Part shown: positions 98 through 57,692 of the stretch, piece after piece | Numbering within the stretch: position 1 is the stretch's first letter | How the letters are laid out: each line of letters opens with the position of its first letter | IMG/VR virus record: IMGVR_UViG_3300030514_000006 | From: an uncultured virus (IMG/VR IMGVR_UViG_3300030514_000006) | Lineage: Duplodnaviria; Heunggongvirae; Uroviricota; Caudoviricetes; Herelleviridae | Reading direction: 5' to 3' (one strand) | Length of the DNA stretch: 64,000 nt | The notes under the pieces: model-generated | What the model was told of the DNA's origin: nothing | Seen by the model: the letters and a program-made list of their open reading frames with translations, nothing else | Database searches by the model: none | Position numbers and translations under genes: made by a program

Positions 98-180
98 GCC
101 GAGATGATGGAATTGGTAGACTTGCCTGACTTAGAATCAGGTGCCCTAGCGGTGTGGGAGTTCGAGTCTCCCTCTCGGCA
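98..180 (+). tRNA. tRNA-Leu (anticodon TAG)
   Basis: Acceptor GCCGAGA/TCTCGGC, anticodon arm CCTGA-CTTAGAA-TCAGG, long variable arm, TTCGAGT T-loop, discriminator A. CCA is not encoded. Confidence 0.93.
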
Positions 181-182
181 TA

Positions 183-250
183 GTCCGTGCCTGACAGTTT
201 CCTTAATATCTGATTAAAAACCAGTGGAGAGCGTCAGGGTCTGGACACCA
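183..250 (+). ncRNA. Candidate structured ncRNA: long hairpin ending in ACCA inside the tRNA cluster
   Basis: GTCCG(183-187)/TGGAC(242-246) is followed by ACCA. Further helices are CCTGAC/GTCAGG and TTTCC/GGAGA. No D or T arm. Confidence 0.45.
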
Positions 251-255
251 TTAAT

Positions 256-341
256 GCATCTGTACCGAAGCGGCTAAACGGAGTAGGTTGCAACCCTACT
301 GGCTTATGCCTACGCAGGTTCAAATCCTGTCAGATGCTCCA
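256..341 (+). tRNA. tRNA-Cys (anticodon GCA) with long variable arm
   Basis: Acceptor GCATCTG/CAGATGC, U73, encoded CCA. Anticodon arm GTAGG-TTGCAAC-CCTAC. The 14-nt variable region contains a GGC-TTAT-GCC stem. Confidence 0.88.
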
Positions 342-351
342 ATAATATTAC

Positions 352-425
352 GCCCGGATAGCACAATTGGCTAGTGCGCCTGACTTGTAATCAGGAGGCT
401 GCAGGTTCGAGTCCTGCTCTGGGCA
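352..425 (+). tRNA. tRNA-Thr (anticodon TGT)
   Basis: Acceptor GCCCGGA/TCTGGGC, anticodon arm CCTGA-CTTGTAA-TCAGG, T arm GCAGG-TTCGAGT-CCTGC. Confidence 0.93.
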
Positions 426-11651: not shown

Positions 11652-12346
11652 ATGGCATCTGTAACTAACCAAACAGTACAGTCCGCTAATACGGTGTACT
11701 TTATGATTAAGAACGTACCTATCGCTCGTGCTCAGTCTATCTCAGCAGAACGTAGCTTCGGTACTACAGGGGTCTACCAGATCGGTTCTATCATGCCGCA
11801 AGAGCACGTTTACTTGCGTTATGAGGGTTCTGTAACTGTAGAACGATTCCGTATGAAGAAAGAGAACTTAGCGTCTCTAGGCTTTGCCGCTTTAGGTGAA
11901 GAAGTATTACAAATGGATATCATGGACATTGTACTGTATGACAACTATACTCAAGAAGTTATCGTTGCATACCGTGGATAAAATAAACTGTTCACGTTAA
12001 ACAACTCTAACTGCTGGAAACCCCTTAGAGCCAACTCAGCTACAACGTAAGGATGAAACAAGCCTAAGCGTGAATGCTTGAAAATGAATTGGATTGGGCA
12101 ATCAGCAGCCAAGTCTCGAATAGAGAAAGGTTCAACGACTATCCCGCGAGGGAGTACACCATAAAAGGTGGAAATGGGTTGCCTCTAGTAATAGAGTGAA
12201 GATATAGTCTAGTCCCTATCAAATATGTCGAAAGACAGGGTATAAACGGTTCAATCGATACTTACTCAGAATCAACTTCTGTAGGTGAAATTAGCTCAGA
12301 AAGTGCTAGATTCTACTTCTTAACTTCAGCTAATGTAAGAGGTTAA
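11652..12346 (+). CDS. Tail tube protein, spliced (exon 1 11652-11979, exon 2 12249-12346; 141 aa)
   Basis: Exon 1 ends ...AYRG plus T. Joining to 12249 restores TGT and reads CSIDTYSESTSVGEISSESARFYFLTSANVRG*. The total of 426 nt matches the roughly 142-aa tube protein of Twort/K-like phages. Confidence 0.92.
11980..12248 (+). mobile_element. Group I intron (269 nt, no internal ORF)
   Basis: The 5' exon ends in U and the intron ends in G. P1 GTGGAT/GTTCAC has the U-G wobble. Core elements: P AACTGCTGGAAA (12009), Q AATCAGCAG (12100), R GGTTCAACGACTA (12129), S AAGATATAGTCT (12199). P7 GACTA/TAGTC; P3 CAACTC/GGGTTG. Confidence 0.93.
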
Positions 12347-12350
12347 TGTC

Positions 12351-12388
12351 AAAAAAGAGCTCTGTATTATACAGGGTTCTTTTTTTTT
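12351..12388 (+). terminator. Intrinsic terminator after the tail tube gene (possibly bidirectional)
   Basis: A6-GAGCTCTGTA/TACAGGGTTC-T9. Confidence 0.8.
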
Positions 12389-12442
12389 ATTGCAAATTTT
12401 ATGAAGTTGTGCTATATTATAAACATGAAAGGAGTGGTACTT

Positions 12443-13363
12443 ATGCCTAAAAGACTAACATACGGAGAAGTTAAAGAATATATAGAGGGGAAAGGGTACA
12501 GCCTAATAAGTGAGGAGTATACAAACGCAAGTACATCCTTAGTAGTTAAATGTGATAAGGGGCATGACCCATACGAGGTTAGGTTTGGAAATTTTAAAAC
12601 AGGAAAGAGATGTCCAGCCTGCGCCATCATTAAACGTAACGAGTCTAAAAGGATTGACCCGAAAGTAGTAAAAGCAGAAGTAGAGAAGGCAGGATACATT
12701 CTACTAGAAATCAAAGAAGGCTCTAAGTGTAAGCATAAGAGAATGATCGTTAAGTGTGATAAGCTACATGACCCCTATGAAGTTAGTTATCAGAATTTTA
12801 AAAAAGGCAGAAGATGCCCCTACTGTAAGACTGAAAAGAAAAGAACACCAATAGAAGAGGTTATAGCTACGGTCAATGCAGAGGGGTTCGATGTAGTTAG
12901 TGGAGAATTTATCTCAAGGAAAAGTCGAATGATATTTAGATGTCCAGAGGGGCATGATTACCCGGCTACATATGATCTATTTTTAGCAGGTAAGCGCTGC
13001 CCTAAATGTAACAAAAGTAAAGGTGAGGTACTAGTATCTCGTATCCTAGCAGAACTAATCCCTGATATCAGAGTAGAAGAGCAATACCTCGTACGAATAG
13101 AAAATAAAAACTATCGATACGATTTCTGCATTCACTCAGATAAGCTTTTGTTCATTGAGTATGATGGGCACCAACACTACATGCCTATCGAAGCTTTTGG
13201 AGGGCAGGAAGGCTTTGAAAAGCAAAAGATAAGCGATAGTATAAAAGATCGATATGTAGCTGATACAGAAGGGACAGAGCTTCTAAGGATACCTTATTTC
13301 TACGGAGAAGATAAAGTACGAGACAGCATCGCTCAGTTTCTATCAAAACATAGAATTATATAG
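12443..13363 (+). CDS. Free-standing putative homing endonuclease (Zn-ribbon repeats plus Vsr/DUF559-like PD-(D/E)XK domain)
   Basis: Three CxxxH..RCPxC repeats, then SKGE..YRYDF..FIEYDGHQHY..KDRY..LLRIPY. AAAGGAG RBS before ATG 12443. Has its own promoter and terminator. Confidence 0.8.
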   Translation: MPKRLTYGEVKEYIEGKGYSLISEEYTNASTSLVVKCDKGHDPYEVRFGNFKTGKRCPACAIIKRNESKRIDPKVVKAEVEKAGYILLEIKEGSKCKHKRMIVKCDKLHDPYEVSYQNFKKGRRCPYCKTEKKRTPIEEVIATVNAEGFDVVSGEFISRKSRMIFRCPEGHDYPATYDLFLAGKRCPKCNKSKGEVLVSRILAELIPDIRVEEQYLVRIENKNYRYDFCIHSDKLLFIEYDGHQHYMPIEAFGGQEGFEKQKISDSIKDRYVADTEGTELLRIPYFYGEDKVRDSIAQFLSKHRII

Positions 13364-13385
13364 GCACCTAAAAGGGTGTCTTTTT
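13361..13385 (+). terminator. Intrinsic terminator (AGRCACC family)
   Basis: AGGCACCT-AAA-AGGGTGTCT followed by a T tract. Confidence 0.7.
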
Positions 13386-13441: not shown

Positions 13442-14959
13442 ATGTCAAACGTTTTTCGAGACAATATGTATCAAAACTTCCCTGACCCCAACAAAAAGAT
13501 TGAAGAGTTAGGGGAACAAGTAGAAGGTTACGATAACACGATCAATACTCTTTCCAAAGTTACGGTTAGTATTGCTAATTTCCCAAAGCTACCCCCTGAA
13601 ACGGACGATACTAGTAGAATAAAAAGGGCACTTACTTATATTGAATCCCTTGGAGGCGGAACACTAGTATTCCCCTCTGGTAATTACTATGTTACAGCAA
13701 CTTCCTCCTCTCCTAATGTTATCTCGGTTAAAAGTAATTGTTCATTAGAGGGGCGAGGTAATGTTGTTATCCAACTAAACTCAACTAGCCTAACGAACTA
13801 TGCGATTGTAGACATCCGTAGTGTAGCCAACGTAACCGTTAGAAACATTAAGATTATAGGAGATAGAGACACACATGTAGGTACTACAGGTGAATGGGGA
13901 ATGGGAGTAAACATCATTGAGTCAAGCAATGTTATCCTAGATAAGGTAGTTGTGGAGAAAACTTGGGGTGACGGTATTTATATTGGTTGCCTAACATTTA
14001 CCCCAGTAGCTCATAATGTTAATATCAAAGCAACAAATTGCGAGTTTCAGGGAAGACGAAACGGGATGAGTATTATTGATCTCACAAATGGGGTGTTTAA
14101 CAGCTGCGTGTTTCGAGATACAACCGGGACATTACCTAAAGCAGGCGTGGACTTCGAACCAAACTCGGTGAACCAGTTAGTTGAGAACGTTAGATTTAAA
14201 GATTGCACATTTAAAGACAACACTAATGCATTTGTTACAGCTAATATAAATGGAAATGTTAAAAATTTACGTGTAATTGACTGTGATTTTAAGAACGGAG
14301 ATACCCACATCAGTCTCGGTGGTACTACTTCACCTCTGTACGATGTAAAAGTTAAAGGGTGTACTTTCGAGAATTTCATGGTCGCGGGTAATAAAAACAA
14401 TGCGGAGCCTGCTGGTGGTTTACGTGGGGTCGAGAATGCTATGTTAGATGGAAACACTTTTAAAAACTGCGGTAAGTTCACCATTAGAACAAGTAGTAGT
14501 GGCGTTCTATCAAAAAGAATTAAAATATACAGGTCAGAGTTAACAGACTCGGCTGGCTTCGAGGTAAGATCAGGTGATGGTATTAAGATTAAAGATGCGG
14601 AGATTAGCAGTTTTACTAACTTCGGTGTATTCATCAATAAAATAGACACGTCACAGACTCAAAACATCTTTGTTGACTCTATTGAAATTAATGGAAGTGC
14701 CGGAGGAAGCTCTATTGCTTCGGGAGTACGTATTGACGCAGGTGATGATGTTTCTGTACAGAATGTTACCTGTAGAAAAGACTCTGGAGACTTGATGAAG
14801 CGAGGTATTTACGTTGCTTCTACTGCCGGGTATGTGAAACTGATTAACAATGACTGTAAAAACGGGGGAGCGGACAATGGTATATTAAATAACGTAGCTG
14901 GTACTTATTTGAGAAATAACCGAATGAAGGATGGAACCTTTACAGACACCCCGAACTAG
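13442..14959 (+). CDS. Right-handed beta-helix (pectate lyase-like) spike/depolymerase
   Basis: DDTSRIKRAL..GGGTLVFPSGNY start of a pectate_lyase_3-type domain; WGDGIYIG, RRNGMSI and GVDFEPN repeats; late promoter at 13398. Confidence 0.82.
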   Translation: MSNVFRDNMYQNFPDPNKKIEELGEQVEGYDNTINTLSKVTVSIANFPKLPPETDDTSRIKRALTYIESLGGGTLVFPSGNYYVTATSSSPNVISVKSNCSLEGRGNVVIQLNSTSLTNYAIVDIRSVANVTVRNIKIIGDRDTHVGTTGEWGMGVNIIESSNVILDKVVVEKTWGDGIYIGCLTFTPVAHNVNIKATNCEFQGRRNGMSIIDLTNGVFNSCVFRDTTGTLPKAGVDFEPNSVNQLVENVRFKDCTFKDNTNAFVTANINGNVKNLRVIDCDFKNGDTHISLGGTTSPLYDVKVKGCTFENFMVAGNKNNAEPAGGLRGVENAMLDGNTFKNCGKFTIRTSSSGVLSKRIKIYRSELTDSAGFEVRSGDGIKIKDAEISSFTNFGVFINKIDTSQTQNIFVDSIEINGSAGGSSIASGVRIDAGDDVSVQNVTCRKDSGDLMKRGIYVASTAGYVKLINNDCKNGGADNGILNNVAGTYLRNNRMKDGTFTDTPN

Positions 14960-15837: not shown

Positions 15838-16374
15838 ATGAGAAACATAGAAAAATACAAAAAGTTTTGTGAAGCGGTTAAAGAAGGCTATTTTTTCTAT
15901 AAAGAAGGTAGAGTTTATAGAGGTAAGCAATGGGATAACAAGAAAAAAGAATACGTGGATTTAGAGAGTTCAGTTATAGCTAGTCGTCCAACAAAGAGAG
16001 GGTATAGGAGAATAATCTTTAAAGGGGATACGCTATACGAGCACTCGTGTATATTCGCAATGTTCTACGGAATAGAAGAGTTAGCAAAACACCAGTGTGT
16101 AGATCATAAGGACGGAATAAAGGATAATAACTTAATTAGTAATCTTGAAGGAGTAACAATCAAAGAGAATACATATAGAGCAGAGGAAAAAGGTCTATTT
16201 AAACGAACATATGGAGAAATAAACGGACAGGCAAAGCTTACAAGGAACCAAGTAGACACCATTAAGCAATTATATAAGGAGAAGAAACACAACCAATATG
16301 AGTTAGCAGAAATGTTTAATATCTCTCAGCCACACGTCAGTGACTTAATTAATAACAAAAGGTGGGCGCATTAA
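15838..16374 (+). CDS. HNH homing endonuclease with a C-terminal HTH
   Basis: VDHKDGIKDNNLISNLEGVTIKEN (HNH_3 type); GEINGQAKLT..QYELAEMFNISQPHVSDLINNKRW. Confidence 0.88.
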   Translation: MRNIEKYKKFCEAVKEGYFFYKEGRVYRGKQWDNKKKEYVDLESSVIASRPTKRGYRRIIFKGDTLYEHSCIFAMFYGIEELAKHQCVDHKDGIKDNNLISNLEGVTIKENTYRAEEKGLFKRTYGEINGQAKLTRNQVDTIKQLYKEKKHNQYELAEMFNISQPHVSDLINNKRWAH

Positions 16375-17079: not shown

Positions 17080-17163
17080 TAGCCATTTGTATGTTATAAT
17101 ATAATTAGAGACAACCTCTACTGTTATATTACTAGTAGAGACTACGAATTAGGAGGATTGAAT

Positions 17164-17586
17164 ATGTCTGAAAATTTAGAACAGGAAGTCGTTGGTATGG
17201 AAGTAGAGGAATCGGCAGAAGCTAGAGAAACTAGAAAAAGACTTGAAGAAAAGAAAGTAATTGACCGGGTTATTCGTGGAGTTAATGATACGTTTGAAAA
17301 GGATTATAACATCCCGGAGCTGGGAATTAAAATGAAAATTAAAGCTAAGGCACCTAATGCTATGCAGATCGGTAAAATTCAAGCTCGTCTAAGTATGTAC
17401 TTAGGAGGGATGAATAACTATGCACCGGAATACATTTTAATTGCTTACCAGATGCTAGCAACGTTACGTGAGACAGGAATTGACGTACCTAAGGAACTAG
17501 AAAAGGATGAAGATATTTTTAACTTAGACATCCTGTATCATATTGGGGTTGATTTCAAGCGTTGGCTTGATACCTTTCGACTTTGA
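17164..17586 (+). CDS. Tail assembly chaperone (gpG-like)
   Basis: AGGAGG RBS, ATG at 17164; two genes before the tape measure gene. Confidence 0.75.
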   Translation: MSENLEQEVVGMEVEESAEARETRKRLEEKKVIDRVIRGVNDTFEKDYNIPELGIKMKIKAKAPNAMQIGKIQARLSMYLGGMNNYAPEYILIAYQMLATLRETGIDVPKELEKDEDIFNLDILYHIGVDFKRWLDTFRL

Positions 17587-18235
17587 GTTAAAGAAAGTCG
17601 GAGGACTAAAAGCGCTAGCTAGAACACCGTATATGCGGAACCTGTGGGGTGTTATGAAGACATTCAATACAATGCCTACTAACCCTGACTTCCGAGCACT
17701 TACAGACGACCAGATAGACTTAATGATTCTATCGTTAAACGAAGATCATCGTGAGATGGAACTTGCTAGAAAAGGTCTTACAGTGGACTCTGAGCACTAT
17801 GATAGCACGTTCGAAGACGAAGTATGGAACCGTGAAGTTGGTGACTGGGAAGTTCTTAAAGATGGTCATGACCCGGATGATATCGCACGTCAAGTGGAAG
17901 CTCTTACTCGTGCTGAAGATTTGGACAACTTAGCTATGAAATTTGATAGCCTAGAAGAGTATAATGACTACCTAGCTGCAGGAGGTAAGACAACTCGTGA
18001 GACAGAGGTAGAACAGTATATTAATAAACAAATCGCTGAAGCAGAAGAGAAAGCTAGACGTATAGAGGCAGCTAGAGGCAAAAAGCAAGGTAAACTTGTA
18101 GATGACCGTGACGTAGCAGAGCCTATTAGAACGACTAGTGACCACTTACCGGATATTGACAAGGCAGCAATTGACAAAGCTATTGCCGCGTTTAATGCAG
18201 CTGATGATGAAGACGATGACTTTAGTGTGTTATAA
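17543..18235 (+). CDS. Tail assembly chaperone extension (gpT-like), probably made by +1 frameshift
   Basis: Overlaps the upstream ORF in the +1 frame, has no well-placed RBS/start pair, and the junction reads ACC TTT CGA CTT TGA. Confidence 0.7.
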   Translation: MGLISSVGLIPFDFELKKVGGLKALARTPYMRNLWGVMKTFNTMPTNPDFRALTDDQIDLMILSLNEDHREMELARKGLTVDSEHYDSTFEDEVWNREVGDWEVLKDGHDPDDIARQVEALTRAEDLDNLAMKFDSLEEYNDYLAAGGKTTRETEVEQYINKQIAEAEEKARRIEAARGKKQGKLVDDRDVAEPIRTTSDHLPDIDKAAIDKAIAAFNAADDEDDDFSVL

Positions 18236-56762: not shown

Positions 56763-57692
56763 ATGGCTAGAAATAATACTAAGTGGACTCTAGAATCGGT
56801 CAAGGCTTACTACGCTGAGCATGGTTGCACTTTCGTGTCCACAGAATATAAAACTATGTTGGATTCATACACTTTTATTTGCCATTGTGGTAACAAGCAT
56901 ACCAGCCGCTTTGAGAGTTTTTATAAACATCGGAAAAGATGCAAGAAGTGTGCGGGTAAAGAGGCGGCTGAGCGCAGAAGACTAAGTAAAACGGCTATTG
57001 TTCATACGTTAGAGTCTAAGGGGTTTACCTACCTGAACCACTACTGGGCTAAAAAAGAAGGAGTAAAGACAGATCGGAATTACCTAATGATTGACTACGT
57101 TTGTAAAAACGGGCATGTTCACGCAGGCAAGTACTACCACTCTGTATCAACGTCTGAGTATGGTTGTATGCACTGCCTGTGGGATTTACTTAAGGAGCTT
57201 GAACGGTTACCAATCTCTAAAGTTAAATCGGTCGTAGAATTTTTTGGTATGCGGCTTTTATCTAACGATTACACAAACAATCATACACCAATTCTGGTAG
57301 AGTGCGCTTGTGGTAAACCCTATAAAACTACGCTAATGAGTATAACAAAAGGGCATAGATGTGGGTGTCAGCGAGGAGGGGAGAACCACTACAAGTATAA
57401 CCCTAACCTTACTGACGAAGAGCGACAGGACAAACGAGCTTACCCGGAGTATGCTCAGTGGGTTCGTAGTGTTTACGAGCGGGATAACTACACCTGTAAG
57501 AAGTGTGGTAAGCGCGGAGGTGAACTCCACGCACACCATATTTACTCTTACGCAAAATTTAAAGAGAAGCGGACAGAGTTAGCCAATGGAGTTACGCTGT
57601 GCGTGGATGACCATAAGGCATTTCACCAGTTGTACGGTCTACACGATTTTACTCCTGAAAACTTTTACAAGTTCATGGGGTATAACCACTAG
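56763..57692 (+). CDS. HNH homing endonuclease with N-terminal Zn-ribbon repeats
   Basis: ERDNYTCKKCG..LHAHHI..NGVTLCVDDHKAFH; repeated CxCG..C units. Confidence 0.85.
   Translation: MARNNTKWTLESVKAYYAEHGCTFVSTEYKTMLDSYTFICHCGNKHTSRFESFYKHRKRCKKCAGKEAAERRRLSKTAIVHTLESKGFTYLNHYWAKKEGVKTDRNYLMIDYVCKNGHVHAGKYYHSVSTSEYGCMHCLWDLLKELERLPISKVKSVVEFFGMRLLSNDYTNNHTPILVECACGKPYKTTLMSITKGHRCGCQRGGENHYKYNPNLTDEERQDKRAYPEYAQWVRSVYERDNYTCKKCGKRGGELHAHHIYSYAKFKEKRTELANGVTLCVDDHKAFHQLYGLHDFTPENFYKFMGYNH

Follow-up and report, generated by a model that had tools for sequence, protein, structure and literature searches.

The tail-tube gene of this uncultured phage is split by a small group I intron that encodes no endonuclease, and the gene behind it encodes a putative free-standing homing endonuclease. 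This enzyme probably cleaves tube alleles that lack the intron at the point of intron insertion, here called site C, and carries the intron, the second tube exon and its own gene across. A preliminary description had proposed a collaborative pair of this kind, and much of that proposal stands: the predicted homing-endonuclease fold, the co-occurrence of the two elements among relatives and the divergence tracts that start at the intron site all speak for it. What does not sit well with it is that the wider nuclease family is often found beside intron-less tube genes.

The interrupted tail-tube gene and its neighbour

The stretch of DNA analysed (the window) comprises bases 1-64000 of a 73.8-kb virus record and presents capsid, sheath, tube, chaperone and tape-measure-type ORFs in that order. 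The tube exon shares 94-100% identity with Bastillevirinae phages and, to judge from its sequence, the source is a Bastillevirinae-like phage of Bacillus type. Exon 1 follows a 569-aa sheath gene on its 3′ side and shares 95-100% identity with proteins annotated as tail tube. Over the 1,712 nt from the tube start to the nuclease stop, two further contigs, L013 and L014, match the window exactly, and the locus is therefore no isolated artefact of assembly. The features of the locus are collected in Table 1.

Table 1. Features of the tail-tube and nuclease locus, in window coordinates
Feature	Position	Strand	Remarks
Tail-tube gene, exon 1	11652..11979	+	codons 1-109 and first base of Cys110; PHROG985
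P1 helix	11973..11996	+	exon 11973-11979 pairs with intron 11990-11996
Group I intron without ORF (269 nt; site C, following tube nt 328)	11980..12248	+	Rfam RF00028
Tail-tube gene, exon 2	12249..12346	+	ends at stop; synonymously diverged tract
Terminator-like hairpin, end of tube transcript	12351..12385	+	consensus match only
Promoter-like element, nuclease gene	12390..12418	+	-35, 17 nt, extended -10; consensus match only
Putative homing endonuclease, free-standing, 306 aa	12443..13363	+	Pfam CapR x3, DUF4379; PHROG559
Terminator-like hairpin 3′ of nuclease gene	13362..13381	+	consensus match only

The intervening sequence is confirmed as a small group I intron by its Rfam match (11937-12232), which scores 61.8 bits where the gathering score is 50, extends over the full model and is the sole group I intron match in the window; self-splicing is predicted. 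The intron is preceded by T and ends with G, and its removal in silico restores the reading frame and yields a 141-aa tube protein that matches the uninterrupted f2b1 tube at 100% in both exons. The P1 fold places a U-G wobble at the 5′ splice site, as expected for group I introns, and compensatory changes in P1 occur in the site-C introns of L119 and L026. In an alignment of six introns, which took in two tube introns from other sites, 3/7 pairs were changed on both sides, a count that did not beat shuffles. The longest stop-free stretches span 68 codons on the minus strand and 41 on the plus strand; the intron therefore encodes no endonuclease, as the preliminary description had it. A search for the window intron in tube genes of the named phage records available, from which near-identical ones may be missing, gave 463 matches, none of which covers 80% of the query.

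The same description had placed a separate nuclease gene of Zn-ribbon/Vsr-like character about 100 nt past the tube gene, and both its place and its identity are borne out: the tube stop (12346) is followed after 96 nt by an intact ORF with CapR-type zinc fingers and with I-Bth0305I and Vsr as top structural matches. Translation likely starts at ATG 12443, and an alternative start at ATG 12401 was rejected because the ribosome-binding site and the starts of homologs favour the former. Three CapR-type zinc-finger repeats occupy approximately residues 1-190, and a Vsr/EDxHD-fold domain residues 190-306. The structure model (pLDDT 84) finds its best match in 3r3p, that is I-Bth0305I (Z 12.1, rmsd 2.8, 96 aligned residues, 26% identity), followed by Vsr (1cw0, Z 10.8), these two ranking 1 and 2 among 48,161 chains. 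Foldseek returned weak PD-(D/E)XK-type matches only, and sequence searches against solved structures gave nothing meaningful and did not reach I-Bth0305I. As modelled, the C-terminal domain has a Vsr-like nuclease fold. Residues E195, D227, E239, H245 and D265 are invariant in 16/16 aligned homologs; they are of the right kind and in the right order for an EDxHD motif and would presumably map onto that of I-Bth0305I. NUMOD repeats gave no match in the protein, which has CapR/DUF4379 zinc fingers instead, and on the model it is a different DNA-binding module joined to an EDxHD-type catalytic fold.

Independent transcription of the nuclease gene is plausible because a terminator-like hairpin and a promoter-like element lie between it and the tube gene. 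The promoter search returned 10 promoter-like sites where 5.2 were expected; comparable -10 elements stand in front of homologous nuclease genes, but equally in front of the ordinary downstream gene.

Several other features of the window, all on the plus strand, deserve mention. Downstream of the locus, a 505-aa gene (13442-14959) with tail-spike-like PHROG matches occupies a slot that is variable among close relatives; its DNA is ~75% identical to the counterpart in L020, a lineage that also resembles the window in exon 2. A second free-standing nuclease gene (15838-16374; Pfam HNH_3 and HTH, PHROG59) sits between a 3D-domain gene and a 189-aa gene. Two ORFs overlap at 17158-18235, the first being a tail assembly chaperone, and the overlap may reflect the usual chaperone frameshift. 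Much further on, a 309-aa ORF (56763-57692) that combines zinc-finger-like Cys/His repeats with an HNH domain at its C terminus abuts the stop of an upstream 591-aa ORF, with no group I intron match there in Rfam; it is another candidate free-standing homing endonuclease. Three tRNA genes lie at the start of the window (98-425).

Introns and nucleases among related tube loci

Relatives were gathered by a tube-driven scan, from which the best 80 of 119 confirmed loci were taken, 68 of Bacillus type and 12 more distant ones that were set aside; 3 scanned loci extend too little past the tube gene to be judged. The allele table combines the scan loci, named records and one new metagenome locus (a metagenome scan gave two loci, one of them new), while scans of viral contigs with nuclease alignments gave no new tube-adjacent locus. 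The allele counts exclude copies of the window as well as L030, L039, L065, L074 and L075, five loci that were truncated or unparsed and in which no intron or nuclease was seen. Homologs P0001-P0003 and P0005-P0008 (57-91%), which come without genomic context, were left unscored.

Among the best 80 of 119 loci plus the named and metagenome loci, a Vsr-like nuclease stands behind the tube gene in 12 distinct Bacillus-type loci. Seven of them have at least one tube intron (the window, L119, L026, LBC2, L061, L023 and LY2) and five have none (SBSphiJ5, Eldridge, L077, L021 and L056). Counted from the side of the tube gene, the nuclease adjoins 7/7 interrupted Bacillus-type alleles vs 5/53 uninterrupted ones, leaving 48 distinct uninterrupted alleles without nuclease among the scanned loci. 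The closest homologs in named phages, those of SBSphiJ5 (57%), LBC2 (44%) and Eldridge (40%), each follow the tube gene immediately, in a position where the gene is optional. BvP, pSco-10 and SAP1 have their homologs away from the tube locus, and that of PG-2021_27 has no tube match nearby.

The introns occupy four sites in the tube gene: nt 222 (LBC2, LY2), 311 (L061), 328, which is site C (the window, L119, L026, LBC2), and 382 (L023). The nuclease subtype of the window was delimited by motif and identity as the five proteins most window-like in the zinc-finger region, and it was not recovered as one supported clade on either tree. Carriers of this subtype have a site-C intron in 4/5 alleles (the window, L119, L026 and LBC2) vs 0/55 other Bacillus-type alleles (Fisher p 1e-5, the alleles being related rather than independent and the carriers partly found by nuclease queries). 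The co-occurrence that the preliminary description had proposed to look for is thus present, and the subtype was not found regularly beside intron-less tube genes that keep the same site, its sole intron-less carrier, SBSphiJ5, having a recoded site. The site-C intron of LBC2 is 58% like that of the window and 78% like an intron at another site; this junction has therefore been invaded by different introns next to one and the same nuclease subtype. The L119 intron, at the same junction, is 92% identical to that of the window and its nuclease 63% (39% in the catalytic domain), so the pair is not evolving as a fixed unit. The L026 intron is more distant.

In Silviavirus, an intron at the site-C junction is common, with 85/399 matching records covering at least 80% of the query. 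The nuclease subtype of the window is absent there and the intron is mostly alone, 4/5 inspected records having no nuclease-sized neighbour gene. Tube annotations in Silviavirus end, truncated, at the first tube intron. A Vsr-like motif is found in 'hypothetical' genes behind split tube genes of Twort (L127:3161-4474), SscM-1 (L129:2852-3784), V1SA20 (L130:2865-3851) and StAP1 (L133:3438-4733), and the SapYZU04 tube gene (L128:1217-2760) has four group I introns and no adjoining nuclease gene.

Some further observations concern individual records. The L023 intron (L023:3383-3700, 318 nt, tube nt 382) is a group I intron scoring 44.2 bits in Rfam, below gathering. The tube genes of LBC2 (L002:2902-3900), split by two group I introns, and of LY2 (L004:4001-4730), split by one, are annotated as 74-aa proteins. 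ORFs related to the Vsr-like 'hypothetical' genes lie near uninterrupted tube genes of more distant phages (L081-L084). A 132-aa ORF downstream of the tube region in L060 (4742-5140) resembles an IS200/IS605 transposase.

Divergence tracts, the predicted target and competing explanations

In distant-site homing, the DNA from the cut to the endonuclease gene is always copied and diverges with the element, and the DNA beyond the cut remains that of the recipient (PMC2988022). When the window is set against the nearest relatives that have neither intron nor nuclease, the sequences are nearly identical as far as the intron and ~25% diverged beyond it. Against L011, the tube gene has 1/320 mismatches and then 24/100 (by exon, 2/328 and 23/92), and upstream identity of 98% over 3.3 kb ends at the intron; against f2b1, 4/329 mismatches are followed by 24/91. 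Exon 2 of the window departs from the nearest intron-less alleles as early as 2 and 5 nt beyond the junction, is closest to L119 (12/92 differ) and L020, and forms a tract that travels together with the intron and the nuclease gene. SBSphiJ5, which has the nuclease and no intron, shows 1/323 and then 24/97 mismatches against SBSphiJ, with first differences at nt 324, 327 and 333: divergence starts within 5 nt of the site-C junction and the site is recoded. Its nuclease gene is a clean insertion in flanking DNA that is 98-99% identical.

Carriers of other subtypes break elsewhere. L056 does so after nt 371, near the L023 intron site at nt 382. In L077, divergence begins at nt 267-282, which is upstream of the intron site of L061 at nt 311. 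Both intron-less carriers of a C-terminal-repeat subtype keep the common site-C sequence. LBC2 and LY2, with different nucleases, are identical to nt 317 and then diverge. No relative is close enough to L026, Eldridge, L061 or L021 for placing a boundary. These comparisons put the predicted target of the window's nuclease at or just around the intron junction, in codons 108-111, close to where the preliminary description had supposed it. The tract boundaries near site C fall at nt 320-329 and 323, and similar boundaries occur without the window's nuclease.

As for the target itself, the junction quoted in the preliminary description has to be replaced: it is the window's own spliced sequence, found in 1/48 distinct intron-less, nuclease-less alleles (L073), vs 12/48 for the variant of the closest relatives. 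Codon 111 reads TCA or TCG in all site-C carriers, but also in 22/48 non-carriers, and a single protective codon (Ser111 TCT to TCA/TCG) was set aside as too common in non-carriers for a call. A short palindrome just past the junction, considered as a possible centre for a dimeric enzyme, found no further support. Recoding of exon 2 may protect a carrier without help from the intron; on the other side, L073, which has neither element, shows exactly the spliced junction of the window. BSP10 (L090:2605-3030) and L046 (3001-3426) have the recoded tract of SBSphiJ5 (nt 324-383) with no nuclease gene, possibly a scar or a resistant allele.

One challenge to a partnership is that introns and nucleases may simply collect at a shared hot spot, with crossovers at the last conserved DNA before a hypervariable slot; the nuclease would then cut further along exon 2 or in another gene, and the intron would only hitch-hike. 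Breakpoints do occur in this part of the gene without a nuclease, L062 parting from L066-L070 at nt 317-341, L015 from L016 at nt 365 and the BSP10 type showing a step at nt 323, and they also occur with unrelated nucleases, near nt 317-341 in LY2 and at nt 324 between V1SA20 and StAP1. This part of the gene may thus serve for exchange in general. The slot that follows the tube varies even between close relatives, which makes some exchange here likely in any case, and the solitary site-C introns of Silviavirus and the BvP homolog at an unrelated locus fit the same view. Yet most of 38 close pairs of non-carriers show no step, site C ranks only 121st of 400 windows in conservation and so is no special crossover block, and boundaries vary with the nuclease subtype. 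Moreover, were the cut to fall within exon 2, the opening codons of that exon would not be tied to the cassette, yet these codons are diverged from nt 330 on; and a site-C intron occurs in 0/55 non-carriers. On balance, a hot spot without partnership is unlikely.

Another history, an alternative origin discussed in PMC10448857, would make the pair a relic: the intron would have lost an endonuclease of its own, the neighbouring gene would be a later arrival or inactive, and mobility would have ceased. Relatives of the nuclease family are indeed encoded inside terminase introns of Herelleviridae (PMC11878797, Table 2), and both the unequal divergence of intron and nuclease in L119 and the persistence of Silviavirus introns alone are compatible with turnover. 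This explanation is nonetheless quite improbable, given an intact ORF with all five conserved acidic and His residues and with promoter-like and terminator-like signals of its own, and given that the Bacillus-type tube introns seen (269-353 nt) hold no ORF-sized insert. The sharp boundary against a 98%-identical relative also points to recent transfer.

Homing from the neighbouring gene is the reading that we retain. In related phages whose tube gene has no intron, the nuclease would cut that gene at the junction or no more than a few bases from it, and repair off the carrier genome would copy the whole tract that runs from the cut past the end of the nuclease gene, namely intron, exon 2, terminator and promoter signals and nuclease, so that the intron would spread without an endonuclease of its own. 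Self-cutting of the carrier would be prevented by the intron, by the synonymous changes right after it, or by both. We infer cleavage and its position, splicing in vivo and expression of the nuclease from these patterns. Within this explanation, strict collaborative homing, where the intron is required for immunity, and an intron that rides on a recoded allele appear about equally probable. Intron-less homing would be the ground state, since the wider family often adjoins intron-less tube genes (5/12 Bacillus-type loci), and the intron a dispensable addition, either passenger or shield. The simpler state would be represented by recoded carriers without an intron, such as SBSphiJ5; introns that enter the cut site would thereby become mobile and may contribute to protection. 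The preliminary description had also raised harm to co-infecting relatives, which is possible as a side effect, by analogy with the PhiPA3/PhiKZ case (PMC11878797).

A broader version, rather doubtful, would see the 3′ half of the Herelleviridae tube gene as an arena for several free-standing Vsr/EDxHD-fold nucleases with shuffled zinc-finger arrays, each having one site, and the sites at nt 222, 311, 328 and 382 as entered, sometimes repeatedly, by unrelated ORF-less introns.

Known systems and significance

Collaborative homing is established for F-CphI and an ORF-less psbA intron of cyanophage S-PM2 (PMC6083498), and further instances have been noted in T3/T7-like phages and at the terminase locus of ICP1 (PMC10448857; see also PMC2988022). 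The present locus resembles the S-PM2 case in its ORF-less group I intron in a conserved gene, its adjoining free-standing nuclease and the cut predicted at the insertion site. Unlike psbA, the host gene is the structural tail-tube gene, and unlike F-CphI (Endo VII-like) and the ICP1 enzyme (T5orf172), the nuclease has a predicted Vsr/EDxHD fold with CapR zinc fingers. I-Bth0305I, an EDxHD enzyme encoded in the recA intron of Bacillus thuringiensis phage 0305phi8-36, cuts right beside its own intron insertion site (PMC3239194). It has the same general build, N-terminal DNA-binding repeats followed by a C-terminal Vsr-like domain; it differs in being intron-encoded and in using NUMOD repeats, whereas the window nuclease is free-standing and has CapR/DUF4379 zinc fingers. 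Intron-less homing is exemplified by SegG and SegF among the T4 seg endonucleases (PMC2988022), with which the locus shares an optional gene between conserved genes, a cut site in the neighbour and a co-conversion tract from the cut to the endonuclease gene. The seg model fits SBSphiJ5, Eldridge, L077, L021 and L056; the seg enzymes are GIY-YIG proteins with no intron at the target, unlike the window.

A published counterpart of the layout is that of Kayvirus 812, from the sister subfamily, where non-coding introns in the same host gene and an adjacent putative endonuclease gene (orf103/orf104, also in A3R, 676Z, Fi200W and P4W) have been described, and where introns and nuclease gene are absent together in the mutant line 812a (PMC6445280). 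The Kayvirus passages of that paper name no target site and report no cleavage assay. The Twort orf142 locus, a three-intron tube gene followed by a Vsr-like ORF, is laid out in the same way; in both 812 and Twort, intron positions and nuclease subtype differ from those of the window. Within the phage subfamily itself, a 2025 survey of Bastillevirinae reports 45 introns, which lie in genes for polymerase, terminase, thymidylate synthase and ribonucleotide reductase (PMC11878797), and the PHROG559 'VSR' nucleases that it places in terminase introns belong to the same protein family as the one studied here. The survey, in its main text, treats intron-embedded nucleases, whereas that of the window is free-standing, and the same text lists no tube-gene introns, some of which its supplement may include. 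Nothing on this locus was found in the accessible text of PMC7497331 and PMC7685451, nor any description of an intron-nuclease pairing in Bastillevirinae tube genes in the openly readable literature.

The principle of collaborative homing and the layout at the tube gene are thus already known. The locus adds that Bastillevirinae tube genes do carry introns, the L023 site at nt 382 lying outside the gene families given in the main text of the 2025 survey (PMC11878797), and that several records annotate intron-split tube genes as truncated proteins. Collaborative homing has been proposed as a step by which mobile introns arise, and few cases have been tested; here an unusually concrete target prediction comes with natural phage pairs, such as SBSphiJ5, an intron-less carrier of the nuclease with a recoded site, and SBSphiJ, which has neither element, both recorded on one laboratory host, Bacillus subtilis BEST7003. 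If the doubtful multi-site arena were true, collaborative homing would have originated repeatedly and independently at one structural gene, its pre-intron (recoded) and post-intron stages would both be present in cultured phages, and the nucleases would possibly offer a way to cut the tube gene of co-infecting relatives.
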